A stretch of DNA of 64,000 bases from Takakia lepidozioides (GCA_030704615.1 CM060733.1:14818001-14882000); one strand, 5' to 3'; shown: positions 30,544-58,388, counted from the stretch's first letter. The notes: generated by a model from the letters alone, not told the origin. Numbers and translations: made by a program.

Positions 30544-31584
30544 CACTACAACAGATCGCGGTATATCTGACTGCCGAGCCGTGGTAGTCATGGTTTTTCT
30601 GACTTTGACCATGACTTCCTTGTATTTTTGGACCAAATGGAGCTTCACGTAGTCATTGAAATGACTACGTGACTACGTAGTCCTTTAGGCGACTACTTTG
30701 GTAGACGTCGTCATGACTGCATGGCTCTGCACTAGACGGATGGTTGGTCAACGATGGTTGACCAGCGCGAGCTCGCCACCAAATAGTCGTCGGAATGACT
30801 TCTAGTGCAAGCCTGGTAGCCAAAAGGTTATTTTTAAAAAAAAAATGCTTATAGGGTTGCCCATGAGAGGGCTGGGACTTAGTTTTCTTTTTCTTTCTCT
30901 CCTACGCGGTTTCTTAGTATCGAGCTGTTGTGTTGTGTCATGGACCTGTCATGGAACGCGATGATCGCAGGGGGGGTTGCTATTCCATATGCACAGGTTG
31001 CGTGCATGCATGCACAAAATCCCTTATTATATATGCATGTGACAAATTTGTACGCACACATTGTAGATTGTATGCAGTGGAGTTATATAACATAGAATAC
31101 GACGTATTTATTGCATATGCAAATGTTACATCATATGTATATAGAAAAAATAAAAATAAAAATCTTAGCTAACAAAATCAGTAGTCAATGGTCAAAGATG
31201 CATGTGACCACTAACTCCAACTAATGCACCACCTTAAACTGAAGAGAATACAAGATCCCTGGCCAAAGTAATAGTTTGCAAACTTGTATTCAAGGAAAAC
31301 AGTTTCATATTAACCAAAATATGGACTTTTGTACTAACAAATGCATATGTGTCATGTTTGGAACCACCACATTGCATGTCTGTTTGTAACGCCAAGCAGT
31401 TCTATAATTTGAAAACTTGTATGACAGGTACACAAGTTCCATTTTAACCAAAATAGGAACTTTTGTACTAACAAATGCTATGTGTCATGTTTGGAATAAA
31501 GTAGTAACAAGATAATTACATGTCACATGCATGAAAATGAACGGCACAAGTTAGAGGTTCTTTTTTTGTGCATTTCATGTGTCA

Positions 31585-35513: not shown

Positions 35514-38500
35514 GGAAATTACTACTACAACTGAAGCTGTGGAGGCCGGGACGCTTGCAACCATTATTGACGACATTGATGCAGGGAATTGGGGGGCAGA
35601 TGAGTATGAAGAGGATACAACATCTAGTGATCCTCTTTCTCTAGATGCCAAACAGGCAATTATTTTGGAAAAGAAACAAGATCTGAATGTAACTTTCAGG
35701 TCCCTCCTCATCGAGGATGGAGTTATGGACATTCCATTGTGTCGCATGATTTCTATGCAGGTTGTTAGGCCCGCCCTTGCCAACGACATCCTAAAGCTTA
35801 GAGGAGACTTCTATTCTGGATTCCATCCAGGAGCAGCCGTGTTCTATGTTTCTGTTGAGGGGATTGATGGATCTACTATAGATGTAGGTCCTGATATCAT
35901 CTCTATATGGGATAGTCATTGGAAAACAGTCAATGATGAGTTTGAGAAGTATCTTGAGTCCAAGCCAAAGTTGCATCATCTTCGGGGGAAGATGTTTCAT
36001 GTCTGGGATGGGAATCATAGGCTTCAAGCATGGTATCCCTATATCAATGAAGTTCATGGGGCCAACTTGTCAAGAATGTCTGTGTGACAAGTTGGGTGCT
36101 CAATGCGGACATTGAAAATCGTGGTTCCCTCAGGTCCATCATGGATGGAGTGAATGTGTGAGTTTCCTTTCTATTCTTCATTTACTTTCATGTTCAATGT
36201 TGTCATGTTCTTGCTCAATGGATGTACATATACACATCTTCTTTCTAATGATCATATTTTATATGTGCAGGGCAACAGAGAGGGCACATGTTACATCCAA
36301 ATTTGTGCACTTGGTTTGCAAGGTCAATATGATTGGCCTTACACCTGTCTCTGAATGGAAGAATGTATTGAGGAAAGAGCAATACGACGAATGCATCAAG
36401 AAAGCAGGAAAGACTTGGTATAACCTGACAGTCCATGCAATGCCAGAGATTTTGTACAAGGTAACATCATGTCTTAACCAAGTTTCATTCTTTGCATCCA
36501 TAGACAAGATTCACCTCTGCTTCATGTTATGAACTGTTTTGGTTCTTTTGGCAGCATGATATTGTTGAGGCCCAACGCATGGCGGGGGAAGCTTACAAAC
36601 TTGCTGAGGGGCCAAAGAGTCAAGAGGGCCTTGAAGATACAATGAGACAGGCTGGATTGAAAGCAAGGGAGCAACACAAGAGTCAGCTTGTGAAGTTGCT
36701 TCCTATTGCTGATCCAACCCTTGGAGAGGGGTTTCTCCAAGAACTTAAACTGCATTGGTCACGTGTAAAGGCAGGATCAGAGGAAATGACCCAAGAGAAA
36801 ATGGTGAACATTGCTACCGCCCGGGTGGATCCTGAAGAAAAGGTGGAATGGCTACATATATGGAATGGAGACCAAACACTTCACGACCGTAATTTTTTTC
36901 CACCCGGGCCTATCAGTGGGCCAACACTTGATCCTTGGCTGAATAGAAGGACTTTTTGGTGGCAGGTACATATACAATCACTATCTTCTCAATGCAATTA
37001 ATTCATTTTGTTGATGACACATTAACATAGTTATTTAACTTACTATATTTTCTGGCAGCTTCGCAAGGTTGCCTTGGCTCAGTTTGCCTTGTACACCACT
37101 CAGTTTGGCCAATTTCATGTTGCTTTGGAGGAAGGAGAGAGTGAGAGTCTGGGAGACTACATGGATACATGGAAGATGACTCATTTCAATGAGTTGTTTC
37201 ATAGAGAGTTCTCATTGCCAAAGGGGCCATTCAGAGGCAATGATTGGGAACAACAAACAGGTGGGGAGAAGGTGGTGAGACGGATTTTATTCAGGTACCA
37301 TCTTTCCATTGCATTGTACATGGATAGTGTATACACCTTGTAAGTCAAAAATGTCTATGCTTCAAGTATTTTTCTAGTACATTGGGATATACATGTTTCT
37401 TAATGTGCTTGTTCAATTGTTGAACATGTTGCATAAATATTTGTCTCCACAATAACTTTGAATGTGTTTGTATTTTAGGTACATGAGATTTGTGCTTGTA
37501 CCGAGTGATCGACTTAAGGCCGAGCCCAAGTTTCTGATGGCCTGGAAGTTTGGTGCTCAACAAGCTTCCATGTACACACCTGCAATTGAGGAAGATTGGG
37601 GTGTGGAACACCGGGAAGGGGGGGGTTGGTATTTGGATATGCCCAAGGGTACTATCCCCTATGCAGAAATGGGACTTCATAAGGAATGTGTTCGCAGGCA
37701 GTCAGTGAGTGATGAAGGGGGTATCTCCCCTGAAGTCCCTGTTCTTGATCTGGAGCATGCAGAACAGATTGCTACACAGGCCGCTGACGCTGTAGCCCAA
37801 GTGGTCCCTGCCGTTGTGGGTGTACCAAAACGCAAATCACGAAAAAGAAAAGGTGCGGATGTCAATGCAGGTGTGGCCCCCAATGCAGGTGTGGCTTCTA
37901 TTGCTGGTCCTATTGGTAGTTCTTCACATCCTTCAAATCAGTTGGTTGTAGTGCCTGCACCTACTACTCGAGGAAACAAGCCAAAGGCAAGCGAACATCC
38001 TTACAGTGCAGTGTCATTTTCTGGTGGTGCACCTAGCATGTATCGCATGAAGATCATGCCTACTCATTTCATTGATCTGGTGGAGGCCTCAAGTACATCT
38101 CCTGATGCGACCTTGAAAGAGCTCATGGAGTTCTTAAAAAATGTGAGTTTCCCCCAACAAACAAACTTGAATGTAAGGAATTCTTCGATGTTTTTATATC
38201 CTCATCATCCGGCTATTGACTCCTACATTTTCTGTATGTTGTTTGCAGTTGCCAGGAACTTGGTCTAGTGTTGTGGATGGAAAAAGTGTGCATGTGGCTG
38301 TGGACATGATCATCGTGGACTGCCCAACAGGAATGCCTGTACAGGGCTGTTTGGATGGTGTACAGGTTCCTCCCTGGAATGCTTTTGATAAACGGTATTG
38401 GGAGTATGCATTCTCCATTGCTAATGACCTGTTGGATGACAATGGATGCTTGATGTTCTTGCAGGGCTCTCATGATTCATTTGCATTGGAGCTCTTTTCT

Positions 38501-39666: not shown

Positions 39667-41639
39667 ATAATTAGAAATTACATATACAATACATTGTCCT
39701 CATTGTCAGTCCGAATTTTTTGTTATTTTTTATGATACATGTATTTCTCTCTAGTGTAAGGTAAAACAAATGGGGCAAATGACATGGTGTTGAAATCAGA
39801 TTTCATGTTATCTTCCTGTCATTTGATTTATCTATGTAATAGTTTGTACATAGATCTCTACTGCATTTCATAGATCCCTTTACCTTAATGCGAGTTCGAC
39901 ATGCACTTCAGCACTATCAAATTTCATCATTAGTAAGATCAACCCTTATGAGTATTGTGGCATGTTATGTACACACAGGGTGACTATCTTTATCTCATTA
40001 GTGTTTCATTTCATTAGTGTTTCAAGTCTGAATGGGTAGTGTAGTGGTATGAACTAGGCTTGATACCCGATAGGTTGTGGGTTCTATCTCTGATGGACAT
40101 TATGTTTTTGTAAAATAAAAATGTTTCAGAAGATAGATATATAGATACTGCAAAACCTATGTAACAAAGCTCCCTAGCATTGTCAAGCTCCCTAGCATTC
40201 CCTTAGCATTGCTCCATTCTGAACTTCAAACTAGACTCCCACCATTGGAAAAGCCCGTACCTTCACCATTTGTATCTAACAAGGAGCCGTGCCTCGTCAC
40301 TTTTTAATTTTTCAACCTTTTTTCTCATGTTGGAAAGCCATAAAAGCAACATGTTCATCTCCCATTCCTACACTCACCCATGTGGAATAATAATACAATG
40401 AATATGGAATATTCTATATAGAATATTCTTATTCCATCCTTTGATATTTTGACTATGGACCCTAAGATTAGATGAATCACAATTATTTATTTATTTTTGG
40501 GTACCCTTATTTAAGTGTTGTGCATATAAAATTGTTCCTATGCATATCTAAAATTTGTATGCACGCATACATTCCTCCAAATGCATGCATTTGTGTGCGC
40601 ATATAGTATAGGCTACCTCATCGCAGGATAGGGGCGTGGGATGGAGGCTTTGCTATTCTTGAGCTACTGATGCATGAAGGGGCGAAGCGCATCCTGCACT
40701 GTAACCGCAATGGGCTCTTGGCTCCTGTTAGTACCATGATTTGGTATTCTTCCTGATATTCACAAGGTTCTTGGGAGAGATAGCTTGGTCTTAGTAGTCC
40801 GTGTTTCAATCGACGCCCGCTCCTGGCTGCACCGTGGTGGTTCTCACAAACCAATCCGACATTACTGACTAAAGACACAAGCAACACACACAAGAGGTCC
40901 TATTGTGTTCATGGTCAGTCAAATCCTCCATGGGTCATGACACAAGGTTGAGGACAATGTGGTGAGGGCACCTTCTTCTTCGACCTATTTCAGCCTGTTT
41001 TGACCTCGAATTTCTACACGATGGTGGGACAACCACAATCACAAGGTGTGGCTTTTTCTTAATGTACCATGTAAAGTTCTAAGTTAGTCTATCCTGCAAA
41101 TGTGGGCTCTTGGCTCCTGTTATGATTTGGTATTCTTCCTAATGTTTACAAGGTTCTTGGGAGAGTCAGCTTGGTCTTAGCAGGCCGCGTTTCAATCTCT
41201 GTTGTGGAAGTCGCAACAACAATGGCACAATTGATAAAATCAGGCACAGCTACTCAAGGCACCTTCTTCAACACATTTCACCCTATTTTCCCCTCTTATC
41301 ATAATCGGCCCTAAACTGGTGAGGGCACCTTTTTCTCCAACCTATTTCAGTCTGTTTTGCCCTCTCATCATTAGGGTTGGGGTGTTTGCTGGAAGAGGGC
41401 CGGATTTCAAGCACAAGATTACCTATGATTCCCTGTGGATCCATTGCTACAAGAAACCTGCATGGGTAGATGGTGAACTGGAAACCGTAGCAGCAGCGGC
41501 ACAATTGATAAAATTAGGCACTGCTAATGAAGGCAACCTTCTTCAATACATTTCACCCTGTTTTTCCCTCTTATCAACATCGGCCCTAAATTTTCATGTT
41601 GAATTTCTGTAAGTTATTGGTTGAGTGAACCTTTGATGG

Positions 41640-43985
41640 TTTGCAATGCGTGTGCAAGCCTGACAGCTCTGGAGAAGGGCAAAGAGGTACATGGCAACAT
41701 TGTCAGAGCTGCAATTGTACCACATGTCATTTTGAACAATACCCTCGTGGACATGTATGAAGGGAGTGTTTGACAGTATGGCTGAACAAGATGTGGGTGT
41801 TGTGGAGTGCGATGATTGCAAAATATGCATAGCGAGGACGTGGGATGGAGGCTTTTGAGAATTATGAGCATTAAATGATGTGCAAAGGGGAGAATCCCAA
41901 CCACATCACATTTGTTTGTGTTTGCAATGCTGTGCAAGCCTGGGAGCTCTGAGAAAGGGGAAAGAGGTCCATGGTGATCACATCGTCAAAGCTAGAATTG
42001 TATCAGATGCCATCCTGAACACTGCCTTGGATGATATGTTTGTCAAATGTGGGTGCATTCAGGATGCGAAGGGAGTTTTCCACACTCTGGCTGAACAAGA
42101 TGTGGTGTCATGGAACGTTGGGGGAACGAGATGTGGTGTTGTGGAATGCCATGCTTGCAGGGTATGCACAACAGAGGCACGGGATGGGGGCTTTGGAGAC
42201 CTATGAGCAAATGATTGGGGAAGGGTGAAGCCTGACCACATCAGGTTTGCGTGCGCGTGTAAAAGCCTGGCAGCCCAAAGAGGTGCATGGTTGCATCGCC
42301 AAAGCTGGAATTGTACCAGATGTGATTCCATATGGATCAATAGCTACAAGAAACGTGCATGGTAGATGGTCAACTAAAGGCTCCAGCTGCAGCGGCACAG
42401 TTTATAAAACCAGGCACCTCAATCATGACCACAGCTTCTGAAAGAGGATCAAGAGAGGGAGTCCACAATGCCTCTTCTGGCACTTCTGGGCATGTGAAGA
42501 TGCTTTGCGGCAGGCAGACTGACAGAGGCTCTACAGACTTTAAACCAATGAGGCATTTCAGCAGATTCAGGTACGTGTGTCTGTCCCTTGCTTAAGTGCA
42601 TCAAGATGGAAGGTTTGGACGCTGGAATGCAGGTGCACACTTACATTATCCAAAGTAGATGCACGCCAAATGTTTTTCTACTCAACACCCTTGTCTCCAT
42701 GTATGTTAAGTGCGGGAGCATCATGGATGCTCACCAAGTATTCAACAGAATGCCTCAACGAGCTTTGATCATGTGGAATATAATGTTGGCAGGAGTTACC
42801 AAGCATGGGTGTGGTAGGAATGCTTTGGAGACCTATGAGCAACTGTTGCGCGAAGGGGTGAAGCCCAACCACATCATGTTTGTTTGTGTTTGCAATGCAT
42901 GTGCAAGCTTGGGAGCTCTGGAAAAGGGGAAAGAGGTCCATGGTGACATCGTCAAAGTTGGAATTGTACCAGATGCCATTTTGAACATTGCCCTGGTGGA
43001 CATGTATGGACATCAGCTCCTATGATTCCCTGTGGATCAATAGCTACTAGCAACCTGCATGGATAGACGGTCAACTGGAAGCTGAAGCTGTCGCAGTAGC
43101 GGTGGAATTGACAAATCAGGCATTGCTAATAAAGGCACCTTCTTCAACACATTTCACCCTGTTTTTCCTTCTTATCATAATCGACCCTAAGTTTCTATGT
43201 TGAATTCTGCATGTTAGTTGGTTGAGTGAACCAGTTTGGAGTGACTTTGACATGATACTGCCAATGTGACAATAGGAAAGTATCCAGAAACAGGTAACAG
43301 AGATGAGGAGAAGCTGTGGAATGAATACTTTTCTTACCTAGTCAATGGTGGGACAATTGAGGCAAGAAGGTGAATGTCTGTCTGATTATAGAGAGTAGCA
43401 GATTCAATTGAGCATAGGAACTAGTGTGATAAGTTGAGTTGGGTGTTTCCTAGAACAAATCTAAGTTGTCATCGTCAGCTGCTAGCAGCAAGGCAAGGAT
43501 GTATGCATGATTTGTGCAGAGGCATGGATAGAAGGAGCAGGGATAGAGTGTGGGTCCAGATTCATCCAAGAGGGCCAGAAAGAGGTCCATGGTGACATCG
43601 TCAAAGCTGGAATTGTACCGGATGTCATTCTGAACACTGCCCTGGTGGACATGTATGCCAAATGTGGGTGCATTAAGGATGCGAAGGGAGTTTTCAACAC
43701 TATGGCTGAACGAGATGTGGTGTCGTAGAACGCGATGCTTGCAGGGTATGCACAGCAGGGACGTGGTATGGAGGCTTTGGAGACCTATGATCAAATGATG
43801 GGGGAAGGGGTGAAGCCCGACCACATCACGTTTTTGTGCATTTGCAATGCATGTGCAAGCCTGGCAGCTCTGGAAAAGGGCACAGAAGTCCATGGTAACA
43901 TTGTCAGAGCTGGAATTGTACCAAATACAGTCATTCTAAACAATACCCTCGTGGACGTGTACATGCAAAATGTGGGTGCACCCTA
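41640..43985 (+). pseudogene. Three blocks of captured PLS-class PPR gene fragments inside the transposon
   Basis: LNTALVDMYAKCGCIKDAKGVFNTMAERDVVS, NAMLAGYAQQGRGMEALETYDQMMGEGVKPDHITFLCICNACASLAALEKG; blocks at ~41640-42330, ~42530-43010 and ~43575-43985, with many stops and frameshifts. Confidence 0.9.
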
Positions 43986-44640: not shown

Positions 44641-44936
44641 ATTCTGGAGACGCCATATGGCGCACATCCACAAAACCTCCTGGATTTATTAAAAAGAGAC
44701 ACGTGTACAGTTTGTAGCAGCACACTAAGTCATATATGGTAGAAGTACGTATGACTGCCACATGACAGTGAGATGTATCACTTGGTTCATCTGACTGCAG
44801 TCATCCATGACCGACCATACTGTACTCATTGTATTCACTTGGTTTGCACGACTTAAAGTCATTGCAGTCATATGTACCGTTTATGACTACGGGATAGTCA
44901 TATATACAGTCATATATACCGCGATCTGTTGTAGTG

Positions 44937-46157
44937 CAGTGATCTAGCTAACTCTGCAGTGTTGAGCCAAATTCAAGATGGTTAGGAACATGCCATCGCC
45001 TACACCTCCCGCCGCCTTGATAAACATGAGCGTAATTACTCTATCACTAACAAGGAAGGCTTTGCAGTTATCTTTGGAGTCAAATATTTTAGGCAGTTTT
45101 TACATGGCTGTCATTTACCATTGAAATTGATCATCTACCTTTGAAAGCCTTGCTAACTCCTCGTGAACTCACTGGCAGATTAGCTCGGTGGGCTCTAATT
45201 CTGCAAGGCTATGACTTCACCATCTCCTACAAGCGTGGGAATGATAATGTTAATTCAGATGCTTTGACTCGAGGCGAATCCAAAATCCCTGCACCTTACA
45301 CTACCTTAAATGCCCTGGTCTCCCCTGCTGCACGCTCTACATCACCTGCTGTGCCTGTTTCGGATCCCTATGCCTTGTGTCATTTGTTGGACTATCCTTA
45401 TGTTCCTCTAGATCTGCTTGACACTTGGGATCTACTTCAGTTTGATGTTGGTTGACTTTCTCTTGGTATTGGCATGAATTTTGGTCTGGTATCTTGCAGA
45501 AGGGTCTGGTACTTTCCCTTACCTTAGAACTGCTCATCTTGTCTGGCGCCTGCTTTGGTTTGTTTCCCGACCGAGGGACTGAGCTGCACCTTACAGCCTG
45601 TTTGCCTCCTCATAGGCAGCCAATTGAAAATGAAGTCAGGATTACGAAAGGAAGAGAACGGGGGCTACCACTTTCTTCTCGTCTGCACTAACATGATGTT
45701 GTGTGGCCATGAGTGATGTAGGCATGGATGATCCATTATACGATGCTCTTCTCCATAGGTGCAAAACCGGCACCCACCGTAGTGGCATATCCAAGCTGCT
45801 CATGAGGCAAGTCAACTATCACTTACCCAGCCACCGGGAAAGTGAAGGGAGATTGTTCAGAGTCACTGCTTTGGAAGGTACCTCTGCTGTGGAAGTCCCT
45901 TCTAGGTCCGGTGTCCCTGCTTTGCTCGAATTGTACCATGCTTCTACTTATGCTGGCCATTTGGGGGTTGCTAATACTGTCAAGAGATTACAAGAGCAGT
46001 ATCACTGGAAATGCTTAGTTAAAGATGTCTCAGCTTTCATTGCAAGGTGTGTGCCCTGTCATGCTAAAACCATCCTACCTAGAACCGAAGCTCCCTTACC
46101 TTTGCAGGCCAATCCCGGTGACTGAACCATTTGCTAGGGATGGCAGTCGGACCCCTT
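44937..46157 (+). mobile_element. Host Gypsy element A, part 2: RNase H, connection and integrase HHCC zinc-binding domain
   Basis: AIAYTSRRLDKHERNYSITNKEGFAVIFGVKYFRQFLHG; GRLARWALILQGYDFTISYKRG.DNVNSDALTR; YHASTYAGHLGVANTVKRLQEQYHWKCLVKDV..CVPC; ends at ..PFAR..VGPL. Confidence 0.9.
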
Positions 46158-46434
46158 TGTCGTGCACCTAAGCATCGTGCCACAACATACATCGCTGTCC
46201 ACCACACAATCTAAGCACACAATCCTAGAAAGCTATACCACAGCCGTACTAAGTCCTCTATCACTGTCCCTATTGTACTCAAACTCTATAGACCAAGAGG
46301 CCGGGTACAAGAGCAACCCCATCGTTAGTCGCCGTCTTGCAATCTGTGAACTTGAGTCAGGATCTCGTGTATTGGTCTCCTAATAGCTTGGCCTTGCATT
46401 TCTTGTTAGCCTTCTATGGTTGTATCCACTCCCA

Positions 46435-47940
46435 CTATCCAATGCAATACGGACATAACCAATCCCCATCAGGAACCATCTCAAGAGGTGGAGTCAAGCA
46501 TCCCATATGCCAACCTCTAGAGCATCGATCACACACCAGCATGGTGGCTGCCCCTCTAGCAGACCCACACAACATGCATTTCAAATTTGCAGATACCACT
46601 GCCAGGTTTGGGTCAATCCTGCCATCGACATTCGGAAGGTGACATGGCGCACAATTACGCACATGGTCCTTCCAAGTTATGCCATCCTGACCCTCCAAGA
46701 CCGAGACGCATGAGGGCAAACCCTCTCGAACCCTCAAAATAACACGTCATGCAGTCACATCCAATGTCGTAGGAGCAGTCTGCTGCAGATAGACATAGTC
46801 ACCAGGGTTGAATCTCCGAACCCCAGGACGATAGCCCCCACCACGTATGGTAGCATACCTCAACGTATCACGATGTTGTGCAATGGCAAGGTTATCAAAA
46901 GCCATGGGCATGACTTTCTTTAACAACTCTGCACGCTGCTCACATGCACGTACCCACACGTCCGAATCGTCAAGGTGAAGAACTGTAGCAGCTTCTCTGC
47001 GAATGGATGTAGGCAAATCCGGCTCTCGGCCAAAGAGAAGAAAGTATGGTGAGAAGGAGGCAAGTGATGCTTGCTTGCTGAACCTGTAGCCCATGGCTAA
47101 CCAGGGTAACTGAAGGTCCCATTCTCCTAGGTGTCCCTTCTGCAAGCCATACTTGCGCAAACCCCTCTTTACTGTCTGAACAACTCTCTCTGCCAAGCCA
47201 TCGGCCTCAGGATGATCCCGAGAAGTGATGCGGTGGTCTATCAAGGCTTTGTCACACAAAGCCTGAAACTCCCCCAAGAACTCTCTCCCTTGGTCCGTGA
47301 GTACCTCAGCTGGAGCACCGAATCGGCTAAGCACACAATCCAAGAATGCATACGCAGCTCCCTCACTAGCCTTATCAGGCAATGGAACCAATTCAATCCA
47401 CTTGGAGAAGTGCTCCACCATCACCAACACGTACTTGTTGTGGCGCATGGTCAGTGGCAACGGCCTTGCGAAGTCAAGACTCCACCTGTAGCCCAATCCC
47501 ATGATCGGAAGAGGGTGCAATTGTGGAGTAGGGGCGTTGAATGAAGCACGCACCCTGTCACACACCATGCACCTAGCCACAAATTGTTGCACCTCTGTGT
47601 GCATACCACGCCACCAATACTGCCCCTGCAGTAGACTATGAGTGCGTCGCACCCCAAAATGCCCCAACTCCTCATGGGCATGCTGCACTACATGTGCCCG
47701 CTGTGTTGGGTGAGGCACAATCCTCACTCGACTATCCTCCCACACTCGGAGAAGGTGTGTTTCCTCCCACTTGAACCTCTTGGCTCGTTGTAGGATCCGA
47801 TCCCTCTCCTTGGCAGTCACAGTGGCTGCAGTGTCTCCAGTGCGGAGGTAGTCCAATACAACTGAATCCTCATGTATATCTTTGGCGCCACCTTGCTCAT
47901 TGCTGGCCTCAGGGTCCTCAGACACTTGATCTACAGTCAT
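46435..47940 (-). CDS. Integrase (HHCC + DDE) with C-terminal PHD finger, element B (in-frame stop at 46747)
   Basis: HEELGHFG..YWWRGM..CMVC; WSLDF, LTDQGREF, DGLAER; PHD CMLC..MLVCDRCSRGWHMGCLTPPL..VPDGDWLCPYC. Confidence 0.92.
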
Positions 47941-47958
47941 CCCTGTTGCAGGTCCAAC

Positions 47959-49444
47959 CTAGCCTTCCGCTGCCAAGATACACAGAAATGCAGATGCATG
48001 CCATCCGGGCACCATCTCCTCGTCCGTCTCACCATGCCACCGAGCTCCAGTGTCATCCTGCTGGCTCGTGCATGGATTGCGACTCAACCCATCTGCATTG
48101 TGATTGACCAAACCCGGTCGATACACCACCTGAAAGTCATACTCTTGAAGGATGAGTGCCCACCGTGCAAGCTTCCCCGTAAGCTTGTCTGACTCCATCA
48201 ACCACTTGAGTGGTTGGTGATCCGTGACAAGGGTGAAGAGATTGCCGTATAGATAGCACCTGAAGTGTGCCACGGCCCACACTACAGCTAAGCATTCTCC
48301 CTCATATGAGCTATACTTAGACTCTGCAACGTTGTTCGAGCGGCTAGCATAAGCCACTACGAACTCTCTTCCCTCATCGTCCACCTGTGTGAACACCGCT
48401 CCAAGCCCCAGCATGCTCCAATCTGTATGCAGCTGAAAAGGACGCCCCCTGATAGGTCGTCTCAAGATGGGCGCCGAGGTCAACCTCGCCTTGAGCTCTT
48501 GAAAAGCTTGTTCTTGCTCATCTTCCCACTGCCACTCCTGGTCCACCTTGTTCAGCTTGGTTAGAGCCTTTGCAATGGCACTAAATCCCTTAACAAACCG
48601 TCTATAATAGTTTGCTAACCCCATGAAAGCTGCAACTCGGCTCACATCCGTGGGGCGTGGAACCTGTACAATGGACTCTACCTTAGTCTGCTGTACCCCT
48701 AATCCTCCAGGATATATCATGTGACCCAGATACTCAATCTGGTTGTGGAAAAACTTGCACTTTCCCGGATGTAACTTCAATCCGTGCGCCCTCAAGCGCT
48801 CAAATACCCCCTGAAGGTGTCTCTCATGCTCTTCCACCGTAGCACTAAAGATGATGATGTCATCTATGTAGCACCGAGCAAACTCCACCCCTGCTAGAAT
48901 CCTGTCCATGACTCTCTGAAACTCTGCTGGAGCGTTCTTAAGCCCAAATGGTAAGAACCGCCACTGGTATAGGCAATCCTTCCCGTGCTCATTGATCCCC
49001 CAAAATGCCGTCTTTTGCTTATCCGCCTCCTTGATCGGCAACTGGTGATATCCGGATCGTAAATCCAACGTGCTAAAGACCTTGGCATGCCCAATGGCAT
49101 CAAAGATCTCCTCTGGTGTTAGCATGGCATACTTATCGGACTTGGTCTGACGATTTACAGGTCAGTAATCACCGCACATACGTCTCTCCATCCAATTGCC
49201 AAAGACATCTTTCTTGGCTGACATCACTGTGGCTGAAGCATACTCTCCCCCAAGATAGCTCCACCAAACCAGCCTCCCAAAGGTCCTGAGTTCTCATCTG
49301 AATCAAGGACCTCTCCATGTCACTGTATCTATAGGGTCTCCGAAAGATTGGCGTTTCAGTATCCAATTCAATGCGAATCTCTTGACCCTTCAGTGCTCCT
49401 AAGTCCTTCAAACTGAAGGCAAAACAGTTCTTGTAAGCCCTCAA
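47959..49444 (-). CDS. Reverse transcriptase + RNase H of element B (frameshift near 49250)
   Basis: FSTLDLRSGYHQL, LPFGLKNAPAEFQR, YIDD, FMGLANYYRRFVKGF, LHTDWS..GLGAV, YSSYEGECLAVVWAV, TDHQPL, ADGLSR. Confidence 0.95.
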
Positions 49445-49879
49445 GAACCGCCGTATACGTTGTCTCTCTCCTCCGGTGACTATAGGTCCAACATCAGGCT
49501 CCCAGTTGTCCTCCGTGACTGAAACCTTGAGTCCAGCAGGCTTAGAGGTAGAAGACGCGTCCCGTGGTTGCTATGCTACAACCTCTTGAGTAGTGACCAC
49601 TGCCTCCTCTGTCAGTGACAATGTCTCATCCTGCCCAATCATCCCATTCTTGAGGACCTCCTCAATCCGAGAAAAATCCCAAACCTGATCCATCACCGCC
49701 GCCTTGGCTGCCAACTCATTCTGAACCTCGAGCACCTCCCACGTGTGCCATGGATGCGGCCTGCACCTCATGGTCCTCACCTGCTCGCCCCCACTCGCTG
49801 CCTGTACCGTCTCGGTAGGCAGGGAGACCATGAAGGGAAGTGTACTCTGTACTCTGCGCTGCTCAGCCATAGCCAAGCT

Positions 49880-50900
49880 AATAATCCAGGTCAAGCAATT
49901 GAGATCCATTGCTTGCCCCAACACCTGACGACGTGATGCCTCAGAAAGAGATGGCACCGCCGTGGTACCAGTGGTAAAACCCATCGCTCGCTAGCGCTCG
50001 TCAGCATTGGGCTCCACTAATTGTTGCAATAATCAAGGAGTTTGTTTCCGTACCATGGCGTCCCATGGCGAAGAACCAAACCCCACACTTGACTCTACTC
50101 TCCACTAGCAAGAGGCCAGGTCCACCATCCCGAAAAGCATGGGATCCTGGGAAGCTGAGCAGTGTAGGTAATGCTGCTCGTGGTTGATTCACCTTGTTGA
50201 CCACTGCCAAAGGCGAACGGTCATCGTGTCTCACACGTTGAGACTGCCTCCCTGTGTCCAAAATGCTATCCACTGTGAGGTGTGCTGGCCGCTGCACCCC
50301 ATCAAATGCACGCTTGAGCAGTGCGGGTGGCATCAAGTTAGTCCACCATAGCCGTGGATGATGAGCTCGTGACCCCACTGCAGCTGCATCCAGCAACACT
50401 ACTGACCCAAACCACGACCGGACTTGATGTACACTGGCCATCACCCTGGCCCGAGAATCACCCATCAGTGGCACATTCTCCAAGATGTATGCTGGCGATA
50501 CAGCTTGATGAAGCTGCAAGTGGCGCAAAATCCGCACCATCTCCCAAAACAGACCCGTCCTCGAGTCTCGCAATCCATTGCCATGCCCGGCTGATGAATG
50601 CCCTTGGCAGGGTCAACCTGCCACTACCAGATCAATGGAGCCAACCTGCTCCAAATCCTGCGCCCCCAGCAACGAAATGTCTGCTGGCAAGGCTTGTTGG
50701 TATCCACGAACTGCAGACACTGGCAACAAATCAGGGTATTGCTGTACCAACTGAGCAACATGGCGCAGTGAGACGCGTCGTGCAGTCTCATCCCTCTCCA
50801 CATACAGGTAACGTCGAACTCGTACACCTGCCTACAGTATTGCAGCCAATCCAGTGCTGATCCCGCCAAACAAGTCCAGAAGACATATGCCTTCATCCGG
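49880..50900 (-). pseudogene. DNMT3-like C5-cytosine DNA methyltransferase domain embedded in the pol of element B
   Basis: Motif I LLDLFGGISTG; motif II YVERD; DIS; motif IV DLVVAG*PCQGHS (stop at 50613-50615); LFWEMVRIL; motif VI YILENV; motif VIII AHHPRLWWTN; motif IX-X ER.RAMGF..GTT..SEASRRQVLGQAMD. Confidence 0.9.
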
Positions 50901-51249
50901 GCACTGCCATACAAGAGGTGTGGTGTCCAATGGCGACAACTGAGGTGGTCCTAGTGCAATCACCGCACTTCTCTTCTCCTGACGGTACGAAGGCCTCTAC
51001 CCAGGCTTGTTGTACCCGTCCATCAGCAGCCTGCTGCAAATCCTTGTTCGTACCCCATAATGGAGTGTGAGCAACCATAGCAGGCAACTCCGCCGTACCA
51101 TGCATATCATCCTGCTCTGCTGGAGGTGGCACATCCTCTGCATGGGCATTGCCTTCCAGCAACTCTCTAGGCCAACTAACTGCAGCTGTAAAGGCGACTA
51201 GTGTTGGCATCTTGCCTCGCTGGGCAGCCGCAATATCCCCAATGAATGT

Positions 51250-51660
51250 CACAGGGAGCTGTGCACGACGACCATCCCCTGACTGCCATCCAGGCCTGTA
51301 GGATGCTGACTCCTCCCAAAAGTCCAGGGTGAAGCCCATGGGATATAACATTGCCCCACCAACAAGGACATCGTAAGAGACCGCGTCTGTCACAATGGCC
51401 TTGGCTCGCATCACTGAGCCATCTACAGGATGATCTGGTTGTAGTCCAATGGCCAACTCACGCCGTGTCATGCCCCGAGCCTGCTCTGATCCTCCCAGAG
51501 ATGTCTGTATCTGAAAAGGACAAGGCTCCATATCCGCCTCCATGAGGCCCAAACCTGCAATAGCAGCTCTGCCCAACATCAGTGGCTGAGCTCCTGAGTC
51601 CAACAAGACCCGCAGTGGCCGGTACTTCTTGCCTGCGGTCCACTCAAAGTGAAAATGCCT
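51250..51660 (-). pseudogene. Aspartic protease of element B
   Basis: VLLDSGAQPLM active-site motif; YDVLVGGAMLYPMGFTLD. Confidence 0.8.
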
Positions 51661-51979
51661 CCCTGGTTGTCTAACAAGACAACTCCAGGTGTCACCATGG
51701 CGCGCTCAAAGGCTGGCCTAGCTGGCAACTCCGTCAACCTGGCAGCTACAGCTTGCCATGGCGCAGCCGTGGCAGTCTTGACCCTCAAATCCGAGGATCC
51801 CTCTGCCACTACACCTTCTAGTAACTCCGCAGAAGATGAAGTGACCTCCCCACTCTCGCAGAGTGTTGCTGCTAGTCTGAACACTGTAGCTGGTCTTACC
51901 CCCGGCGTCGCAATCATGGTTGCCGAGAACAGTGGGGCTTGACACACAGAGGTGGCTGCCCCCAATAACACACGGCTGC

Positions 51980-53810
51980 ACTAGGCTTGGTAGCAGGTGT
52001 CAGTGCTGCACGTGTAGCTCTCCCCAATGGCATAGTAACCTCCGCCTCGGTAACAGTCGGGCGAGAGAACTAGGTGCCATGGATGGCGTCGACACTGTCT
52101 CCGCCAATGTGAATGACTGAGGAAGCCTCGCCTGACGGCTTGCCTCCCCACGCTGTGGATCCAATTCCACCTCTGCCACTCGTGGCTCATGAACTCGTGC
52201 TGCTTCTCGAGTCACGGCTGCAGCAGACTCCACCTGCACTAGTGGTAGTACTGCTCCGCACATGAATCCCATGCCTCCCATATCTCCTCCCTCAGGAATA
52301 GGAGGTGGACCATCCCGCCTGGGAGCGGTATCACCTGAGCTGTAGCCATGGCAGCGAGCCTCTGCTCTAGCTGCTGAAGCCGGTTGGCCATGTCTTGGTC
52401 AACACCCTGACCTCCGCGTCCTTGGCCATGTTGAGCTTGCCCTTGGCTTGCACCTCGTGCCCGACCACCTCGTCCTCTCTGGGCTGGTCCACCTCGCCCC
52501 CGGCCACCATTGTTCCCTTGGAACTGGCCTGGGCGCAACTCAGGGTGCAAGTCATAACACTGGGCATCTCCATGCCCATACTTGCCACAATGCCCACACT
52601 GCAAATGTGCAGGCTGTGCTTGTGCCGGCCTTCTGCCACTCTCTGGGCAATCTCTCTTGACATGGGTCCTCCACATGTCCAACATATCACCCCTGGTTGC
52701 TGTTGGCCTGCAAAAGATGCCACGGGCCTCTACACCTGAGGTCCCCTGTAAGGTCCATGGAACTTGGGTTGGGCAACCTTGCCCCCTGACCACGCTGTTG
52801 GGCAGTCCCTTGTACCTGTTGGCTGGCAGCTGCACCTCGTGCAGGCATGTCCTTGCCAAATCCAATGGTAACAACTCGCTCCTCCACCATGTTGGCTCAA
52901 TCCGCTCAGCCAGCAGAAACACATCCGCTAATGTGGGTTGGGCCGCTTGTAACAGGGTTGCATCCCGCACCCTTCTCTTGAGCTCCTTGTCCAAAATTCC
53001 ATACCAGAACTGGACTGCCTGAGCTTCAATAACCCCTTGGGTCACACTTATCAAGCGCCTCATACGAGTGTAGGCCTCTCGCAAGCTCTCACTGGATTTG
53101 CGCTGGAAGTCTTGCAAAACTTCGCAGCTTCTCTGTCCGTACACCTTGGTAGTTCCTCCGCAACTCCTGGAAGAACTCCACCACCGGGTTGAATCTAGGC
53201 ACATGTGTTGTAATTGTGGCAGAGGAGAGTAGTAGCACCTTTTGAACTGGTACCACCTGCAGAAGTGCCGGCACTACTTGTTCCACTACTAGTGCTTGTA
53301 GTTGGAGATGTTTGTGAAGCTGCTGGTGTCACCGCTGCCCTTGTGCCTCTAGTGATTGAGACATAGTTAGGTGACCAATACTCTCGCACTCCTCAATCTC
53401 CACCGCATGTCCCCGCCTAAATTCATGGTAACATCCATGGGCGGCCCCTCAAGGTGCTGGAATAGCCCCTTCCACGCCATAAAGGGCGTAAATAGTTGTG
53501 GATTGCGCATTTGCTTGCAATCACACCAACTGTCAAACTCTTGTATAAGGTCATCAAGCTGATGGTGCCCACAGCTCCAGAGTACCTACGTGGCCCCTTG
53601 GTAGCTCCATACATCTCCTCCATCGTGTCCACAACATGGCACGGAAATGACTTGCACCCTCGGCGAGAATCCTCCTGACTCCGAGTCTGAACCTTCCTCA
53701 GAAGATACTGAAGGTGAAAGTGGCCTAAACCGCACACCTTGTCTTGTGTACCCACTAGTATCGCTGGTGCTTGTACCGGCACTCCCTCAGCAGCTGGTGG
53801 CACCTCCGTG
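51980..53810 (-). pseudogene. gag of element B (retrotransposon gag core + two CCHC zinc knuckles), frameshifted
   Basis: FQRKSSESLREAYTRMRRLI..QFWYGIL; CWTCGG.HVKRDC and CGHCGKYGHGDAQC; RG-rich tail. Confidence 0.8.
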
Positions 53811-54510
53811 ATGAAAACTCACAACCCAACCGGTTGTCAACCTGTCTCTAATCCCCACTTTCTACAAGGTAAACCAACCTGTTGTGGCTACTGGTTCAAG
53901 CAGGAATAATAGGTTTCTAACGTAGACCTGTACTGCACCTGCATCCACCACAAGCACTCCTATGGTCTGCTGGTCATCAACCCAGCCTCACCATAGAAGA
54001 AACACTGGTGGTCTTGCTGGTCATCACTCCAGCCTCACCACCGACAGCATACTCTAGGATTGGCGGTGATCAAATCCGGACCAACCTCCTATGAAAACAA
54101 GCGCCCACACAAAGCTAACATGGCGCACAGTCAAGCATGCAGGTGTGGAGGGGATCCAAACACAAAAAAATCAAGACAACAACTCCCCCACACCAAAAAC
54201 ACTCCACAGTGTCGCTCCTGCAAGGACACCCAGCCCAAACCCGGACTGAATCTTGCCTCCACCTACGGAAAGGTTTTGGCCTACAGAGAGGGTGAAAAGA
54301 CTATGGAGAAGAGAAACTAAAGCAATCCTAACCCCAGAATGCTCTCATCCCACCACTCTCCCTCCTGTCTCTATCCACTCGCTTGTATGGCCGTGGCAAG
54401 TATCCTTCAATATCCCTCAATCAATCCTTCAAGAGCTCTTCAACATTGTCCACCAAAGCTCCTCGAAGGGTCCTCCAAGGACCCCAAAGATCCTCCAAAT
54501 ACTCCTCCAA

Positions 54511-54812
54511 GGGTGATACATTAACAGAGGTATAGTCTTAGGTTGCTAGGGTCCCTTATGTTGATGATACCTTTACAGAGGTATAGTCTTGAAAATGAGG
54601 GTTCTGTTTTTTATACTAACAGAGGTATAGTCTGAGCTGATTAGGGTTCACATATGGGATACCTCAATAGAGGTATAGTAAAATGGACAAGCTCCCGTTT
54701 GGTATACTAACAGAGGTATAGTCTCACATTAGGTTTCACATATGGTGATACCTCAACAGAGGTATAGTCAAAGGACAGCTCCTATTGGTATACTAACAGA
54801 GGTAGTAGTCTG
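54511..54812. repeat. Array of 7 ACAGAGGTATAGT cores at ~43-51-bp spacing (dimeric ~90-bp unit)
   Basis: Cores near 54525, 54576, 54619, 54667, 54710, 54756 and 54796; alternate copies share GATACC.. or TATACTA.. upstream context. Confidence 0.85.
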
Positions 54813-56571
54813 AGCATACACTACTAGGGTTTGTAATGATGAAGAGCTAGAATGCAAGTCCTTGACTTCTATGCTTCTACGCAAGCAAAAATATGGTCTC
54901 TAGGTGGTCATAAGAGGCATCTTCTTGCTCTCTTCCACCCCAATGTGCAACCAAGAGTGGTCCAACTCAACTTGAAAGTCATTGTCCACCAAATCAATCC
55001 CCCTTCTAGTCCTTGGGATTTGATTGCAAACTACCATATCTCCATGGCGAGCAAATCATGCATTTGTCTCCTCATCACTTGACAATTGCTCCAAATCAAC
55101 CCAAATTATCTCAATGTGTAGGAGCAATGCTTGTCACTTACAATAATGCTCCCCAACAATCCGCCTTGGATCCCACTCTCACGCCATATGCCTCATTTGG
55201 GGGTCTTGCCACCAATCCATCATCCATGTGCTCCCCGTGGTCATTTGAATGCATGTTTCATGACCTTTGGCCTATATGTTGCTCTCTCATCATTAACATG
55301 AATCAACACCGTCCACTTCACACACAAATGGATCTCAAAGGCCTTCACCTCGTGCTAGTTCAAGAGCTCCCCTTCTCAAACTGGAACTTACAAACTCAAG
55401 CGAGCATGCTCCACACATGCACCATTGCTTGGTTCAACTATCCACCACAAAGCTCGCACTACCAAGAGCATGAATAGCAAAGTATTGCCTCCACCTCTTG
55501 TCACATTACATAGTTAGGGCGAAGTTGCATACATTGAATGATGATTCCCTTCAAGGATTTCCCACCACATGTTCTCCAAGCCCTCCATGGCACCCTAAGC
55601 TTGGCTCCACACCACCATGATGCGAAGATTTCTTCACATGCTCCCTTTCAAAACTCTTGAGCTTCTTAGTGCTCTCCAAGTGCTTGCCTTCGTTGTCTTC
55701 AAGCCCAAGCAATATATAGCTAATGGCTTCTCTTCCACAACATCCACACTTTGAACTTGCTTAACCCTAGCTTGATAGTTGAAATGAGCACTAACAGCCT
55801 TTAGTCACTCTCCACAAGCCATGGCGCACACCATCGACTCATAATGCATACAAAGGATTCTCAAACCCTAGAATCCATGCTTCCACACACACAAGACTTC
55901 CTCCTTACAATCCTTGCAAAATCTGTGACTCAAGAGCTTTCTTTCCAAGCTCTCCAACTCCTTGTGCATGCAATACTGAGCACCTTTCCTTGCAACCACT
56001 TGCCAAGCCTTTGTGATACAAGAGCTAAATTCTCCTAGCTCTCAACCTCTTTAAAATACAAGTGCAAAACTAATCCCTACACTCCAACACTCACAAGCAT
56101 AAGTCATCTTCTTGTAGTAATAAGAGAGAGAAAATGAGAGAAGTAGAAGAAGAAATGAAAAGCTCTCAAGCATGAAGCAATTCACATGAAGAACAAGCCC
56201 TAGTTCTTCCAAGTGAAATCCACTCTATCACATAAAAGAAGTCAAGCCAAGGGGCACCTTTGCTAAAGGAATTCACCCCCCTACCAAAACCCTCATCCCA
56301 ACTCCCTCTCAATACCTAGAGCTATGGAGGTGAGAGAAGCTCATGGAGGTTCAAATACCAAGAAGATGAGCCTCCTCAACACTCACAAAGGGGGAAAACC
56401 TTCTCCATGTCTCAAGTGAGGCTCGACACCTCACTTGGCATGTGAGACCAAATGAAGTCCAACACCAACAATAAAATATAAATGTTAATATCTAAAAATG
56501 TCCTAGTTAACTAGAAGTAGGTAATTCTAGATAACATGACCAATGAAGAATATCTTTTTCATGGACACATT

Positions 56572-57320
56572 AAATCCACGTCCAAGGGCATGCAATACAG
56601 TTTGGGTTGTTGCTACGGACTTTACCTGACGAAAAATGGGTGGCTCCGACCTCTGGTTGCTAAGGATAGTGATGAGGGTGGTGCAGTTCTTCTTTGATAA
56701 GGTGATACTTCGTATGGTTGCACCTCTTGAAAATCATCCACGGATCAAGGTGACAGAGTTCTGCACCAATTATGGAGATTGTTTGTTTAATTCAAACACT
56801 AAGATGCCGTTATCTGTCCTTACAATCCCCAATGCAATGGGTTTGACAGAACAATTTAACAAAAACTTATGCCAGATGCTTCGAGAAGCATGGATGGCAC
56901 TCATTGATTTGAAAGGATATTGATGTGCATATTCTGCTCTTTGCCTATAGGACTTCTATCCATGCCAGTACCAAAATCTCACCTTTTGAACGTTTGTATA
57001 GTAGGAAAGTAGAGAGAGAACTCCTTTGAATCTCTTGGCTGCAGGATATCAGCTACTGAGACTGAGAATTGGGAAGTTATTTTTGCTTTCCATGAATGCT
57101 AGACGACGTAGTTGCGTAAAACTGCAAAATCTAACATTGAATTGCCCAAGCTGATCAGGCCAAGAATTACAACGACGTGTTGTGGTATTCTAAGTCATTC
57201 AAGGTAGGCCAGTTGTTTGTGTCAAGCCCGCTTGGTAAGCAGATTTCTAAGGCAAACGAAGAATTTGATGGCCCTTACCTTATCTCTGATATTCTTCCTG
57301 GCAGGCCGGATGTCTTGCTC
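56572..57320 (+). mobile_element. Host Gypsy element A, part 3: decayed integrase core and GPY/F motif
   Basis: Frameshifted KGMQY..ATD.LTK, FFDKVILR, TDQG.EF, P.AMGLTEQFNKNLCQML, LFAYRTSIHASTKISPF, FDGPYLI. Confidence 0.8.
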
Positions 57321-57749: not shown

Positions 57750-58388
57750 TCACCTTTCTTTTCGACGTGGATGACTGGAGGAGGGATGCCCTCCGGATGA
57801 TTTAGGGAGGGACAGAGCAGGATGCCAGTATCACGATGCAGATGAACTACACCTTGCGCATGAGGATGACCTGGTGACAGCTGATGACTTTATTAGGTGT
57901 ATCTTATTCTAAACAGCTGGTTTAGGATTAGCTTAGGATGGGTCTGGGTGGGTGATCTGGCTTCTTCTATGGCTATGCTAGAGAGGCATCTGGTGGGCCT
58001 ATATGTAAGTGCCACGCAGCACTGGATTAGATTATGACCTAATACTATTTAAGCCTCACTGCCGTGGCAGTGAAGAACCCTCGCCAGTGTTAAATGAGGA
58101 ATCTGAAAACTCCAATCCGACGATCTCTATTGTAGATCTCTCATTATCGATGAGCATATATCTTTGGGATTTTGGGTTCTAACACGAGCGGTACGCGGGG
58201 GTTTGTTGTAACGGGTGTACTGTTTTGTACTTGAGGTGGGTGATGAAACTGTTTGGAAAGTTGAGTCCGTGGTGTCATCTTCGTGAGATTCCGTCTTCTT
58301 GCAGGCCCCATCTATCGACTACGTTTCCCCATATAGGATTAAGTCCGGTGAGGAAAGGAAGGGGAACAAACCCATAGCGCCGGAATCA
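57750..58388 (+). mobile_element. 3' LTR of element A (same family as the LTR at 891-1413)
   Basis: Ends ..CGCCGGAATCA at 58388. Collinear with the reverse complement of 891-1413, with ~100 bp of extra sequence at ~58075-58170. The 5' boundary is approximate. Confidence 0.85.

Follow-up and report, generated by a model that had tools for sequence, protein, structure and literature searches.

The 64,000-nucleotide stretch of Takakia lepidozioides DNA analysed here (GCA_030704615.1 CM060733.1:14818001-14882000), referred to below as the window and numbered from its first letter, contains on its minus strand a Ty3/Gypsy retrotransposon that carries a DNMT3-like C5 cytosine methyltransferase (hereafter DNMT) and, at the end of its integrase, a PHD finger. 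The element is organized in two open reading frames (ORFs), the first encoding Gag, protease and DNMT and the second encoding reverse transcriptase (RT), RNase H, integrase and PHD, which are split by a conserved in-frame stop. The sequence of this stop and its analogy with viral signals make it likely that it undergoes programmed readthrough and, since the DNMT is encoded before the recoding site, together with Gag, far more of this enzyme than of RT and integrase would be produced. A first-pass annotation, made from the window sequence alone, had placed the DNMT inside pol; instead, the DNMT ends ORF1, upstream of the stop, and RT, RNase H, integrase and PHD constitute ORF2.

Three-frame translation and Pfam searches gave the order gag, protease, C5-methyltransferase, RT, RNase H, integrase and PHD along the minus strand, and both Pfam and the family profiles recover the protease-RT-RNase H-integrase order with a DDE integrase that characterizes Ty3/Gypsy elements. 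The gag region at the start of ORF1 (52240..53623, opening with MEEMYG at 53623) is frameshifted and has no Pfam match, yet it aligns with a Marchantia ORF1 (P0003, residues 1-422) in several tblastn pieces of 31-73% identity, and its translation includes a CCHC-like knuckle and a Gly/Arg-rich segment near its end. The aspartic protease (51316..51654, with DSG at 51600) is below the Pfam cut-off (Asp_protease_2, E 0.003) and is recognized by the family profile (E 7e-45). The DNMT (49880..50897; PF00145, E 2.4e-13 with stops read as X) presents motifs I, IV, VI, VIII, IX and X in canonical order: DLFGGI at 50876, PCQ at 50612, ENV at 50480, RLWWTN at 50354 and GFTTG...RQVLGQA at about 49985-49905. 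It is followed by RT (48700..49500, with YIDD; RVT_1, E 2.7e-31), RNase H (48139..48528; RT_RNaseH, E 4.3e-36), an integrase (46582..47715) formed by an H2C2 zinc finger (Integrase_H2C2, E 4.5e-16), a DDE core (rve, E 4.2e-14) and a C-terminal region, and a C4HC3 PHD finger (46435..46581, motif span 46581-46444; PF00628, E 2.4e-11). Protease aside, all of these matches beat the curated cut-offs, and every motif named in the first-pass annotation was found, in the order given there. The PHD occupies the C-terminal position of the integrase, where Chromo has no Pfam match at E 0.1, and ends the ORF, directly followed by the terminal stop. The element reaches past the interval 46435..53810 on both sides: its 3' end is at 46158, and a 5' leader (53624..54524) extends, according to steps in contig depth, to at least about 54.5 kb and possibly to about 56.5 kb.

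The window copy is a dead, broken member of its family. Premature in-frame stops are present in the DNMT (50834, 50615 and 49993), in RT (49164), ahead of the integrase (47961) and in the integrase tail (46749), and tblastn with Marchantia P0003 reveals frameshifts in gag and near 49247, within RT. Furthermore, joints in contigs of the sequencing runs indicate that a stretch at about 50030-50109, within the DNMT, differs from other copies. The stop at 49573-49571 is a feature of the family and is separate from these stops of decay. This can be appreciated in an intact relative, L007 (CADCWO010000201.1), which consists of two stop-free frames split only by TAG CAA TCA. L007 and a second locus, L008 (CADCWO010000148.1), were recovered by scanning prokaryote genomes with an ORF2 protein (P0450); they are intact or near-intact copies of the plant family in an assembly labelled as an uncultured Synechococcales cyanobacterium, and their presence in a cyanobacterial bin is almost certainly due to eukaryotic contamination. 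A metagenome scan with the window DNMT returned six loci, two of which (L001 and L002) are copies of the element; the other four (L003-L006) were rejected as unrelated phage-like or bacterial methylases.

The conserved stop lies on the minus strand at 49565..49573. The window frame that holds DNMT motifs IX-X continues for 116 codons up to a TAG (49573-49571) and proceeds from there, in frame, into RT. The letters that follow the TAG are CAA CCA, which match UAG-CAR-YYA, given as the type I readthrough consensus of tobamoviruses (PMC3542737). The corresponding site of L001 and L002 reads TAG CAA TCA and is likewise in frame with RT, and in L007 a stop-free protease-DNMT frame of 1162 codons is followed by TAG CAA TCA and by a stop-free RT-RNase H-integrase-PHD frame of 1047 codons; UAG-CARYYA and an open downstream frame are thus found in all four loci that cover the junction. 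When the four are compared without gaps, 8 of the 9 letters of the stop motif are identical, as opposed to 10 of the 97 letters that surround it, and base composition gives a chance of only 0.001-0.002 of finding CARYYA after a given stop. Downstream of the stop, the first Met appears at codon 85 in the window and at codon 117 in L007, inside RT in both. Fourteen of the 30 named bryophyte records reach motif X, and half of these (7 of 14) end 96-100 residues beyond it.

The family is abundant in DNA runs of the host, and the window copy is not a one-off. Contigs of public DNA runs are about 1000 times deeper on 46.1-54.5 kb than on the flank: the summed contig depth, which is not a copy number, is 9,272-37,135 over 46104-53321 against 8-20 over 44901-46103 in run X2, and 337-1,661 against 7-17 over the same intervals in run X5. 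In X2 the depth of the DNMT bins (22,536 and 19,754) is close to that of the RT bins (32,817 and 24,369). Protein searches with the window DNMT found 40 longer proteins and 112 of similar length, with identities of 52-74% (mostly 55-73%) in Marchantia polymorpha, M. paleacea, Calypogeia fissa and Sphagnum, and of 38-42% in Closterium; the DNMT profile matches 526 representatives at E<=1e-30, of which 150 were listed, in a library clustered at 50% identity. Relatives keep the DNMT at this position, and its absence from other members, which the first-pass annotation had regarded as a sign of a single capture, is not what was found.

A search with the integrase tail and the PHD retrieved 144 proteins, with named relatives from Klebsormidium, Chlamydomonas, Volvox, Pleodorina, Tetrabaena and Haematococcus, and also from Coleochaete, Tetradesmus and Hariotina. 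According to our own domain profiles, the DNMT is present in 87 of the 120 records listed: 64 carry it after RNase H, 20 directly before the integrase (records that contain neither RT nor RNase H) and 3 before RT; the remaining 33 are without it, mostly because the record begins at or after RT. Two architectures can thus be distinguished, one with the DNMT between protease and RT, whose named members are streptophytes, and another with the DNMT between RNase H and integrase, whose named members are chlorophytes. A protein of 2122 residues from Cymbomonas tetramitiformis (P0408), with the family DNMT before the integrase, extends the clade to a prasinophyte. A search of viral contigs with P0194 found no relative, and a search of these contigs with the motif X pattern gave a single unrelated locus (L009); in the ESM Atlas, P0045 matched only generic phage methylase clusters. 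As for the annotation of these elements, the Marchantia gene models P0008, P0010 and P0015 join DNMT to RT and omit the stop region, probably through predicted introns, and others carry the name DNA (cytosine-5)-methyltransferase; models of both kinds could pass for host enzymes.

By profile and by fold, the enzyme is DNMT3-like. The best sequence match of the window domain among solved structures is DNMT3A (E 1.2e-9), and the family profile behaves in the same way (DNMT3A, E 1.2e-20; next entry, 4onj, 1.7e-9; M.HhaI, 2e-6; DRM2, 7e-5; DNMT2, 0.05), while the best phage enzyme among the 10 matches listed of 425 has E 1e-15. A structural model of a relative (P0042, pLDDT 84.6) retrieves DNMT3A/3B first, both with Foldseek and with a wide structural aligner: DNMT3B has a Z of 27.6 (root-mean-square deviation 2.7, 277 residues aligned), followed by DNMT3A (26.9), M.MpeI (24.4), M.HhaI (21.8) and DNMT2 (Z 20-22), with identities to the DNMT3A/3B chains of 19-26%. 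The catalytic residues Cys, Glu and Arg are retained in about nine of every ten relatives. Residue counts were made on 151 domains of 230 residues or more, out of 312 proteins, with fragments that contain only the DNMT assigned by default to the first of the two architecture classes; 138 of 145 relatives (65 of 68 and 73 of 77 ungapped rows in the two classes) retain the catalytic Cys, and the Glu of motif VI is present in 69 of 71 and 73 of 80 rows. Between RNase H and integrase, C. reinhardtii (P0220), Pleodorina (P0210) and Tetrabaena (P0248) have a DNMT-like domain that is missed by Pfam and is without the Cys; the volvocine domain is possibly a pseudo-enzyme.

Comparison of the window with intact L007 gives 51% amino acid identity over the 315 codons of the DNMT, with pN 0.36, pS 0.74 (saturated) and pN/pS 0.48; the same ratio is 0.71 in the linker, 0.57 in the protease, 0.40 in the PHD, 0.27 in the integrase, 0.23 in RNase H and 0.19 in RT. 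Because dS is saturated in most comparisons pN/pS was used, and the decay of the window copy inflates all of these ratios. Between L001 and L002, dN/dS is 0.41 for the DNMT (49 codons) and 0.40 for RT. These values indicate that the DNMT is under purifying selection, and the neutral evolution that would have counted against the first-pass annotation is not seen. Its core proposal, namely that seed-free land plants have a Ty3/Gypsy-type element in which a DNMT3-like domain is combined with a PHD at the end of the integrase, holds for the whole family and concerns a constrained enzyme.

The history of the two domains was addressed with FastTree phylogenies of RT and DNMT for the 103 records that have both, plus the window (104 rows), the DNMT tree being restricted to element domains. 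Of the RT splits with support of 0.95 or more, 35 of 50 recur in the DNMT tree, and no strong RT split is contradicted by any of the 32 strong DNMT splits; path distances in the two trees are correlated (Spearman 0.55; none of 999 permutations as high). The nine DNMTs located before RT group together (0.96). In an IQ-TREE phylogeny of RT-RNase H, built from 35 hand-picked records, the window, L007 and one outgroup, the window groups first with Marchantia (99/91) and next with Coleochaete (98/93), Klebsormidium being further out, and the records with the DNMT after RNase H form a single clade (100/100); a 90-row FastTree agrees. The root of the RT tree rests on one long branch, and its outgroup is another Gypsy RT fragment of the window. 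Klebsormidium P0211 (RT-RNase H-integrase-PHD), a record that begins after the DNMT position, groups with the set that has the DNMT before RT, and C. reinhardtii P0220, with the same ORF2 domains, belongs to the sister group. Taken together, the RT and DNMT trees fit a long co-inheritance of both domains, with one capture, one relocation and persistence into land plants; two captures are a possible alternative. The first-pass annotation had left open whether the lineage persisted or recurs: persistence from streptophyte algae is compatible with the RT tree, and recurrence is not favoured.

The PHD finger is intact (C4HC3 plus Trp) in 153 of 163 relatives. Among these 153, an Asp follows the third Cys in 146, and the position two residues before the His is Gly in 143 and Trp in only one; the window PHD is likewise without the Trp of the aromatic cage. 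The nearest solved PHDs are those of CHD4, PHF12, KDM5B, KDM5A, ATXR5, PHF21A, DPF3, BAZ2A/B and UHRF1, most of which we take to be readers of unmodified H3, like the ADD domain. The combination of C4HC3, an Asp after the third Cys and no cage Trp two residues before the His, matched here, is presumably the signature of PHD readers of unmodified H3. The PHD is retained where the DNMT is dead or absent. In C. reinhardtii, REM1 is reportedly a Gypsy polyprotein with a PHD finger. The suggestion that the PHD is a land-plant feature fails, since PF00628 is found in 119 of the 120 listed relatives, including Chlamydomonas, Volvox and Klebsormidium, and the PHD of Gypsy-7a_cRei has been published (PMC9940879), together with a bias of this Chlamydomonas element to intergenic insertion. 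PHD capture by transposons has been called widespread (PMC6673714; 10.1101/2021.11.30.470311). To judge from these comparisons, the PHD is an accessory that is old and already known, and it persists also where no working DNMT is present.

The ends of the element are unusual. The layout of the relatives is TG..A, internal region, purine tract, B, two nucleotides, A, B..CA, with a palindromic B-A junction. L001 has repeat A at 3125-3395 and B-A-B at 12858-13328, starts with TG, is flanked outside both ends by a direct repeat of 4-5 bp and has one mismatch at the final CA. In L008, two identical copies of B, of 106 bp, flank A; a G-rich tract precedes the first B in L007 and L008, and the B-A junction palindrome is GACA-GC-TGTC in these two loci and GACA-AT-TGTT in L001. 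Two full equal long terminal repeats (LTRs) are absent from L001 (A...B-A-B), and L008 shows B-A-B. A tandem B-A array in L001 is unlikely: there is no B before the first A (z 0.6), and the likeness to A after the second B is weak (z 3.6, against 12.1 between the two A copies).

The window keeps no long repeat and no two full equal LTRs, only B, at its 3' end (46158..46242); this copy of B ends in CACGACA at 46158, like those of L008 and L007, with no A and second B after it, and X2 depth falls about 500-fold from bin 46104-46504 to bin 45703-46103. No exact target-site duplication matching the CA end was found at the 5' end of the window copy; five candidates with CA plus a duplication, as well as a TG-like start at 56536, were considered and none was confirmed, and the similarity of this region to repeat A of L001 is at chance level (13 against 12 +/- 1.9). 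The non-coding segment that separates the PHD stop from repeat B contains a short motif, GGCGAYTAANGATGGGG (46317..46333), which is matched exactly in the window and L001 and with a one-letter variant in L007 and L008, and the pattern GGCGAYTAANGATGGGG...CACCC is kept in all four despite saturated synonymous sites; it is possibly a cis-signal for packaging or priming. The internal-B-only structure of the window copy fits either a one-LTR circle opened at the palindrome or recombination between B copies. If both strands of the palindrome were cut after CA, in a staggered manner, the products would be normal integrase ends, from which integration by opening of end-joined cDNA is inferred.

The mechanism that we consider somewhat better than an even prospect is one in which Gag-protease-DNMT is produced in bulk, rare readthrough extends it to RT-integrase-PHD, the cDNA is methylated inside the particle and insertion is guided by the PHD. 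Readthrough of a few percent at a signal of the tobamovirus type I would set the Gag:Pol ratio, as UAG readthrough does in murine leukaemia virus (MLV); unlike in MLV, the recoding site sits downstream of protease and DNMT, so the latter would be packaged in bulk. The protease would free the DNMT inside the particle, where cDNA would be the only DNA, and, by analogy with DNMT3 and SymbioDIRS-Dnmt3, the enzyme would write mainly CG methylation. The new copy, methylated before insertion, would arrive already marked like host heterochromatin. The PHD, which has no K4me3 cage, would hold the integrase at the free N-terminus of histone H3 and steer insertion independently of the DNMT, while the integrase would open the end-joined cDNA at the B-A palindrome. 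The full account is considered less likely than not: a DNMT3-type writer would have entered, in a single capture, a retrotransposon clade whose age equals that of green plants, would have changed place between two positions and, in land plants, would have come to lie before a leaky stop, so that each particle is loaded with the enzyme, with cDNA methylated in the particle, circles opened at the palindrome and insertion steered by the PHD.

Several observations weigh against parts of this proposal. Concerning the stop, no variant at 5% or more was found at 49565-49576 in four runs (one of them from a second organism), but with 22 of 171 places variable such an invariant 12-mer is by itself not rare. 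In the 14 bryophyte records that reach motif X, four end earlier than the group mentioned above and three enter RT skipping the stop region, probably by predicted introns; moreover, the algal-type P0154, P0160 and P0204 have a single frame with no stop between DNMT and RT, so that bulk production is not universal. Concerning the enzyme, its constraint is weaker than that of RT (pN/pS 0.48 against 0.19), the C. reinhardtii, Pleodorina and Tetrabaena domains that have lost the catalytic Cys imply that it is non-catalytic in parts of the clade, and P0257 and P0258, which are without a DNMT though nested among carriers, imply that it is dispensable in others. CpG depletion does not mark the element out, as the observed/expected ratio is 0.51 for the element as opposed to 0.43 for the remaining window sequence, and intact L007 reaches 0.78. 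The element PHD is without an acidic residue before the first Cys, a residue that we take to be present in H3K4me0 readers. Finally, the isolated domain of KnitGypsy-Dnmt3, the comparable element of Klebsormidium nitens, produced no methylation in yeast, a result that its authors called inconclusive because DNMT3B failed too (PMC5890265).

The first-pass annotation had suggested that the element mirrors the reader and catalytic arrangement of DNMT3, and a related possibility is that the DNMT acts at or after integration together with integrase-PHD, methylating the insertion site or the flanking chromatin as a reader plus writer similar to DNMT3 with its ADD. The retention of the PHD in 119 of 120 listed relatives (intact in 153 of 163), its presumed kinship with ADD-like readers of unmodified H3, and the chlorophyte-type members with the DNMT ahead of the integrase (64 of 120 listed after RNase H and 20 directly before the integrase) speak for it. 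However, DNMT and PHD are on either side of the conserved stop, about 1,100 codons apart and with RT and RNase H between them, in a polyprotein that bears a protease. It follows that their amounts would differ and that cleavage would probably separate them, and most DNMT molecules would never join a PHD. The mirror is not supported, and action at the insertion site, given also that members with a dead or absent DNMT still have the PHD, is considered unlikely. Only a shade less favoured is the idea that the domain is kept for nucleic-acid binding or for RNA methylation in the particle rather than for DNA methylation, which would agree with the failure of the Klebsormidium domain to methylate DNA in yeast (PMC5890265), with the catalytically dead domains retained by volvocine algae and with production at the level of Gag, suitable for a structural function. 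Against it, the catalytic Cys, Glu and Arg are kept in about nine-tenths of the relatives, and DNMT3 is the nearest match by profile and fold, well ahead of DNMT2 (E 0.05; Z 20-22 against 27.6).

With regard to expression, the stop could be a true terminator, with RT-integrase-PHD translated from a separate RNA, spliced or internally started, and the DNMT still made with Gag. ORF2 is indeed deposited as a protein of its own, including a 'complete' transcript ORF of Coleochaete scutata (P0195), and some ORF2 records begin with Met shortly before RT; but ORF2 is in frame with ORF1, CARYYA fits in four of four loci amid saturated surroundings, and neither the window nor L007 has a Met for 85-117 codons after the stop, which makes a separate RNA improbable, more so than the two preceding alternatives. 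The last explanation, namely that the window copy captured a fragment of a host DNMT3 and lets it decay neutrally, has in its favour that the window DNMT is broken. RT, integrase and gag are equally broken, however, the DNMT occupies the same place in Marchantia, Calypogeia, Sphagnum, L001, L002 and L007, and the RT and DNMT trees are congruent; the element DNMT has no introns or DUF3444, unlike the DNMT3 of host plants as described in PMC6453930. The family-wide data refute such a capture, to which practically no weight is given.

As for the surroundings of the element, it lies between decayed plus-strand pieces of RNase H and integrase (44938-46125 and 56560-57010) that belong to another Gypsy element. 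The integrase fragments at 45.9 kb and 56.6 kb were also considered as two halves of a single target element, a reading rejected because both seem to hold the region of the first catalytic Asp. A further Gypsy RT fragment is located at 29927-30652 (+). The window also contains pieces of a host gene with BRCT, RING and a PHD-like segment (10200-13804, minus strand), a gene with sperm-tail PG-rich (SHIPPO) repeats (28162-28824, plus strand; E 1.6e-21), consistent with flagellated sperm, and degenerate tandem PPR repeats (40900-43935, plus strand). The PPR-like and sperm-tail genes, like the nearest named relatives of the element, indicate a host among the seed-free land plants. Between 31677 and 38268 there are several long ORFs on both strands with no Pfam match (32181-34493 minus, 35515-38268 plus), of which those on the minus strand resemble the decayed protein of a DNA transposon, with a SWIM-like Cys/His motif. 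Two inverted repeat copies (976-1410 and 57752-58299), 90-100% alike in pieces, are about 57 kb apart.

Why a transposon carries an enzyme that silences transposons has been an open question since 2018. The hosts known so far, Symbiodinium and Klebsormidium, are hard to work with, while Marchantia polymorpha has methylation mutants and methylomes that make the question testable. The position of the stop is a clue missing from the algal description: it would put production of the enzyme at the level of the capsid and points to action on cDNA inside the particle. Likewise, the spread over chlorophytes and streptophytes, with congruent trees, would turn a supposed capture by a single alga into a lineage as old as green plants. 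On the practical side, many Marchantia gene models called 'DNA methyltransferase' are these elements, and some hide the stop. If the proposal is true, mosses still harbour abundant copies of a retroelement that inserts already epigenetically marked, and the model liverwort Marchantia has it as well.

A literature search, with most subscription journals outside its coverage, found no description of a DNMT-bearing Gypsy element in land plants or chlorophytes and none of the stop. The accessible text of PMC11982613, PMC5009743, PMC6453930 and 10.1101/363937 has nothing on this family, and the words 'PHD' and 'methyltransferase' are absent from the main text of the REXdb paper (PMC6317226). A 2025 paper cites DNMT3 in retrotransposons of 'streptophytes' (PMC12344493), from PMC5890265, and a count of five DNMTs in Marchantia does not include these elements (PMC5784723). 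What is known, then, according to the sources available, is a DNMT3-bearing Gypsy element with split repeats in K. nitens and a PHD on Gypsy elements in Chlamydomonas.

KnitGypsy-Dnmt3, as described in PMC5890265, shares with the present family the Gypsy domain set, a Dnmt3-type DNMT with intact catalytic motifs and purifying selection. Its DIRS-like A-coding-B-A-B repeats are matched by L001; L008 has B-A-B and the window keeps only B. In the K. nitens element the DNMT is in the same ORF as RT and RNase H, which here is so only in P0154, P0160, P0204 and similar records; it was described as an acquisition of the K. nitens lineage, whereas here the carriers include mosses and liverworts in a clade that also includes chlorophytes; and the word 'PHD' is absent from the text and searchable supplements of that paper, while a PHD is present here. 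Gypsy-7a_cRei has a PHD on its Gypsy polyprotein, proposed to limit harmful insertions (PMC9940879), and Chlamydomonas P0220 carries a PHD too. No DNMT is reported for Gypsy-7a_cRei/REM1 in that source; P0220 has, in the present analysis, the Cys-less DNMT-like domain between RNase H and integrase. SymbioDIRS-Dnmt3 is another retroelement with a Dnmt3-type domain, capable of de novo CG methylation in yeast, but it is a dinoflagellate DIRS element with a tyrosine recombinase, an unrelated RT, no DDE integrase and no PHD (PMC5890265). DIRS and Ngaro elements in general use a tyrosine recombinase, in place of which the window element has a DDE integrase (rve and Integrase_H2C2). In SIRE1, a CARYYA-like signal is said to precede the env-like gene.

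With respect to recoding, the tobamovirus type I signal (PMC3542737) is matched exactly, and in both cases an in-frame UAG stands before the polymerase part. In MLV, the gag-pol UAG that is read through follows gag alone (PMC5009743), whereas here it follows protease and an accessory enzyme. The host DNMT3 of animals and seed-free plants (PMC6453930) has the same canonical motif order and gives the best fold match (Z 27.6); the element DNMT is without the PWWP, ADD and DUF3444 of the host enzymes and is intronless, inside a retroelement ORF. Chromoviruses and CopiaMBD (PMC6317226, PMC6673714) also carry a chromatin reader on the integrase, but this reader is a chromodomain or an MBD and is accompanied by no writer enzyme, while the element described here carries a PHD finger and a DNMT3-like methyltransferase.

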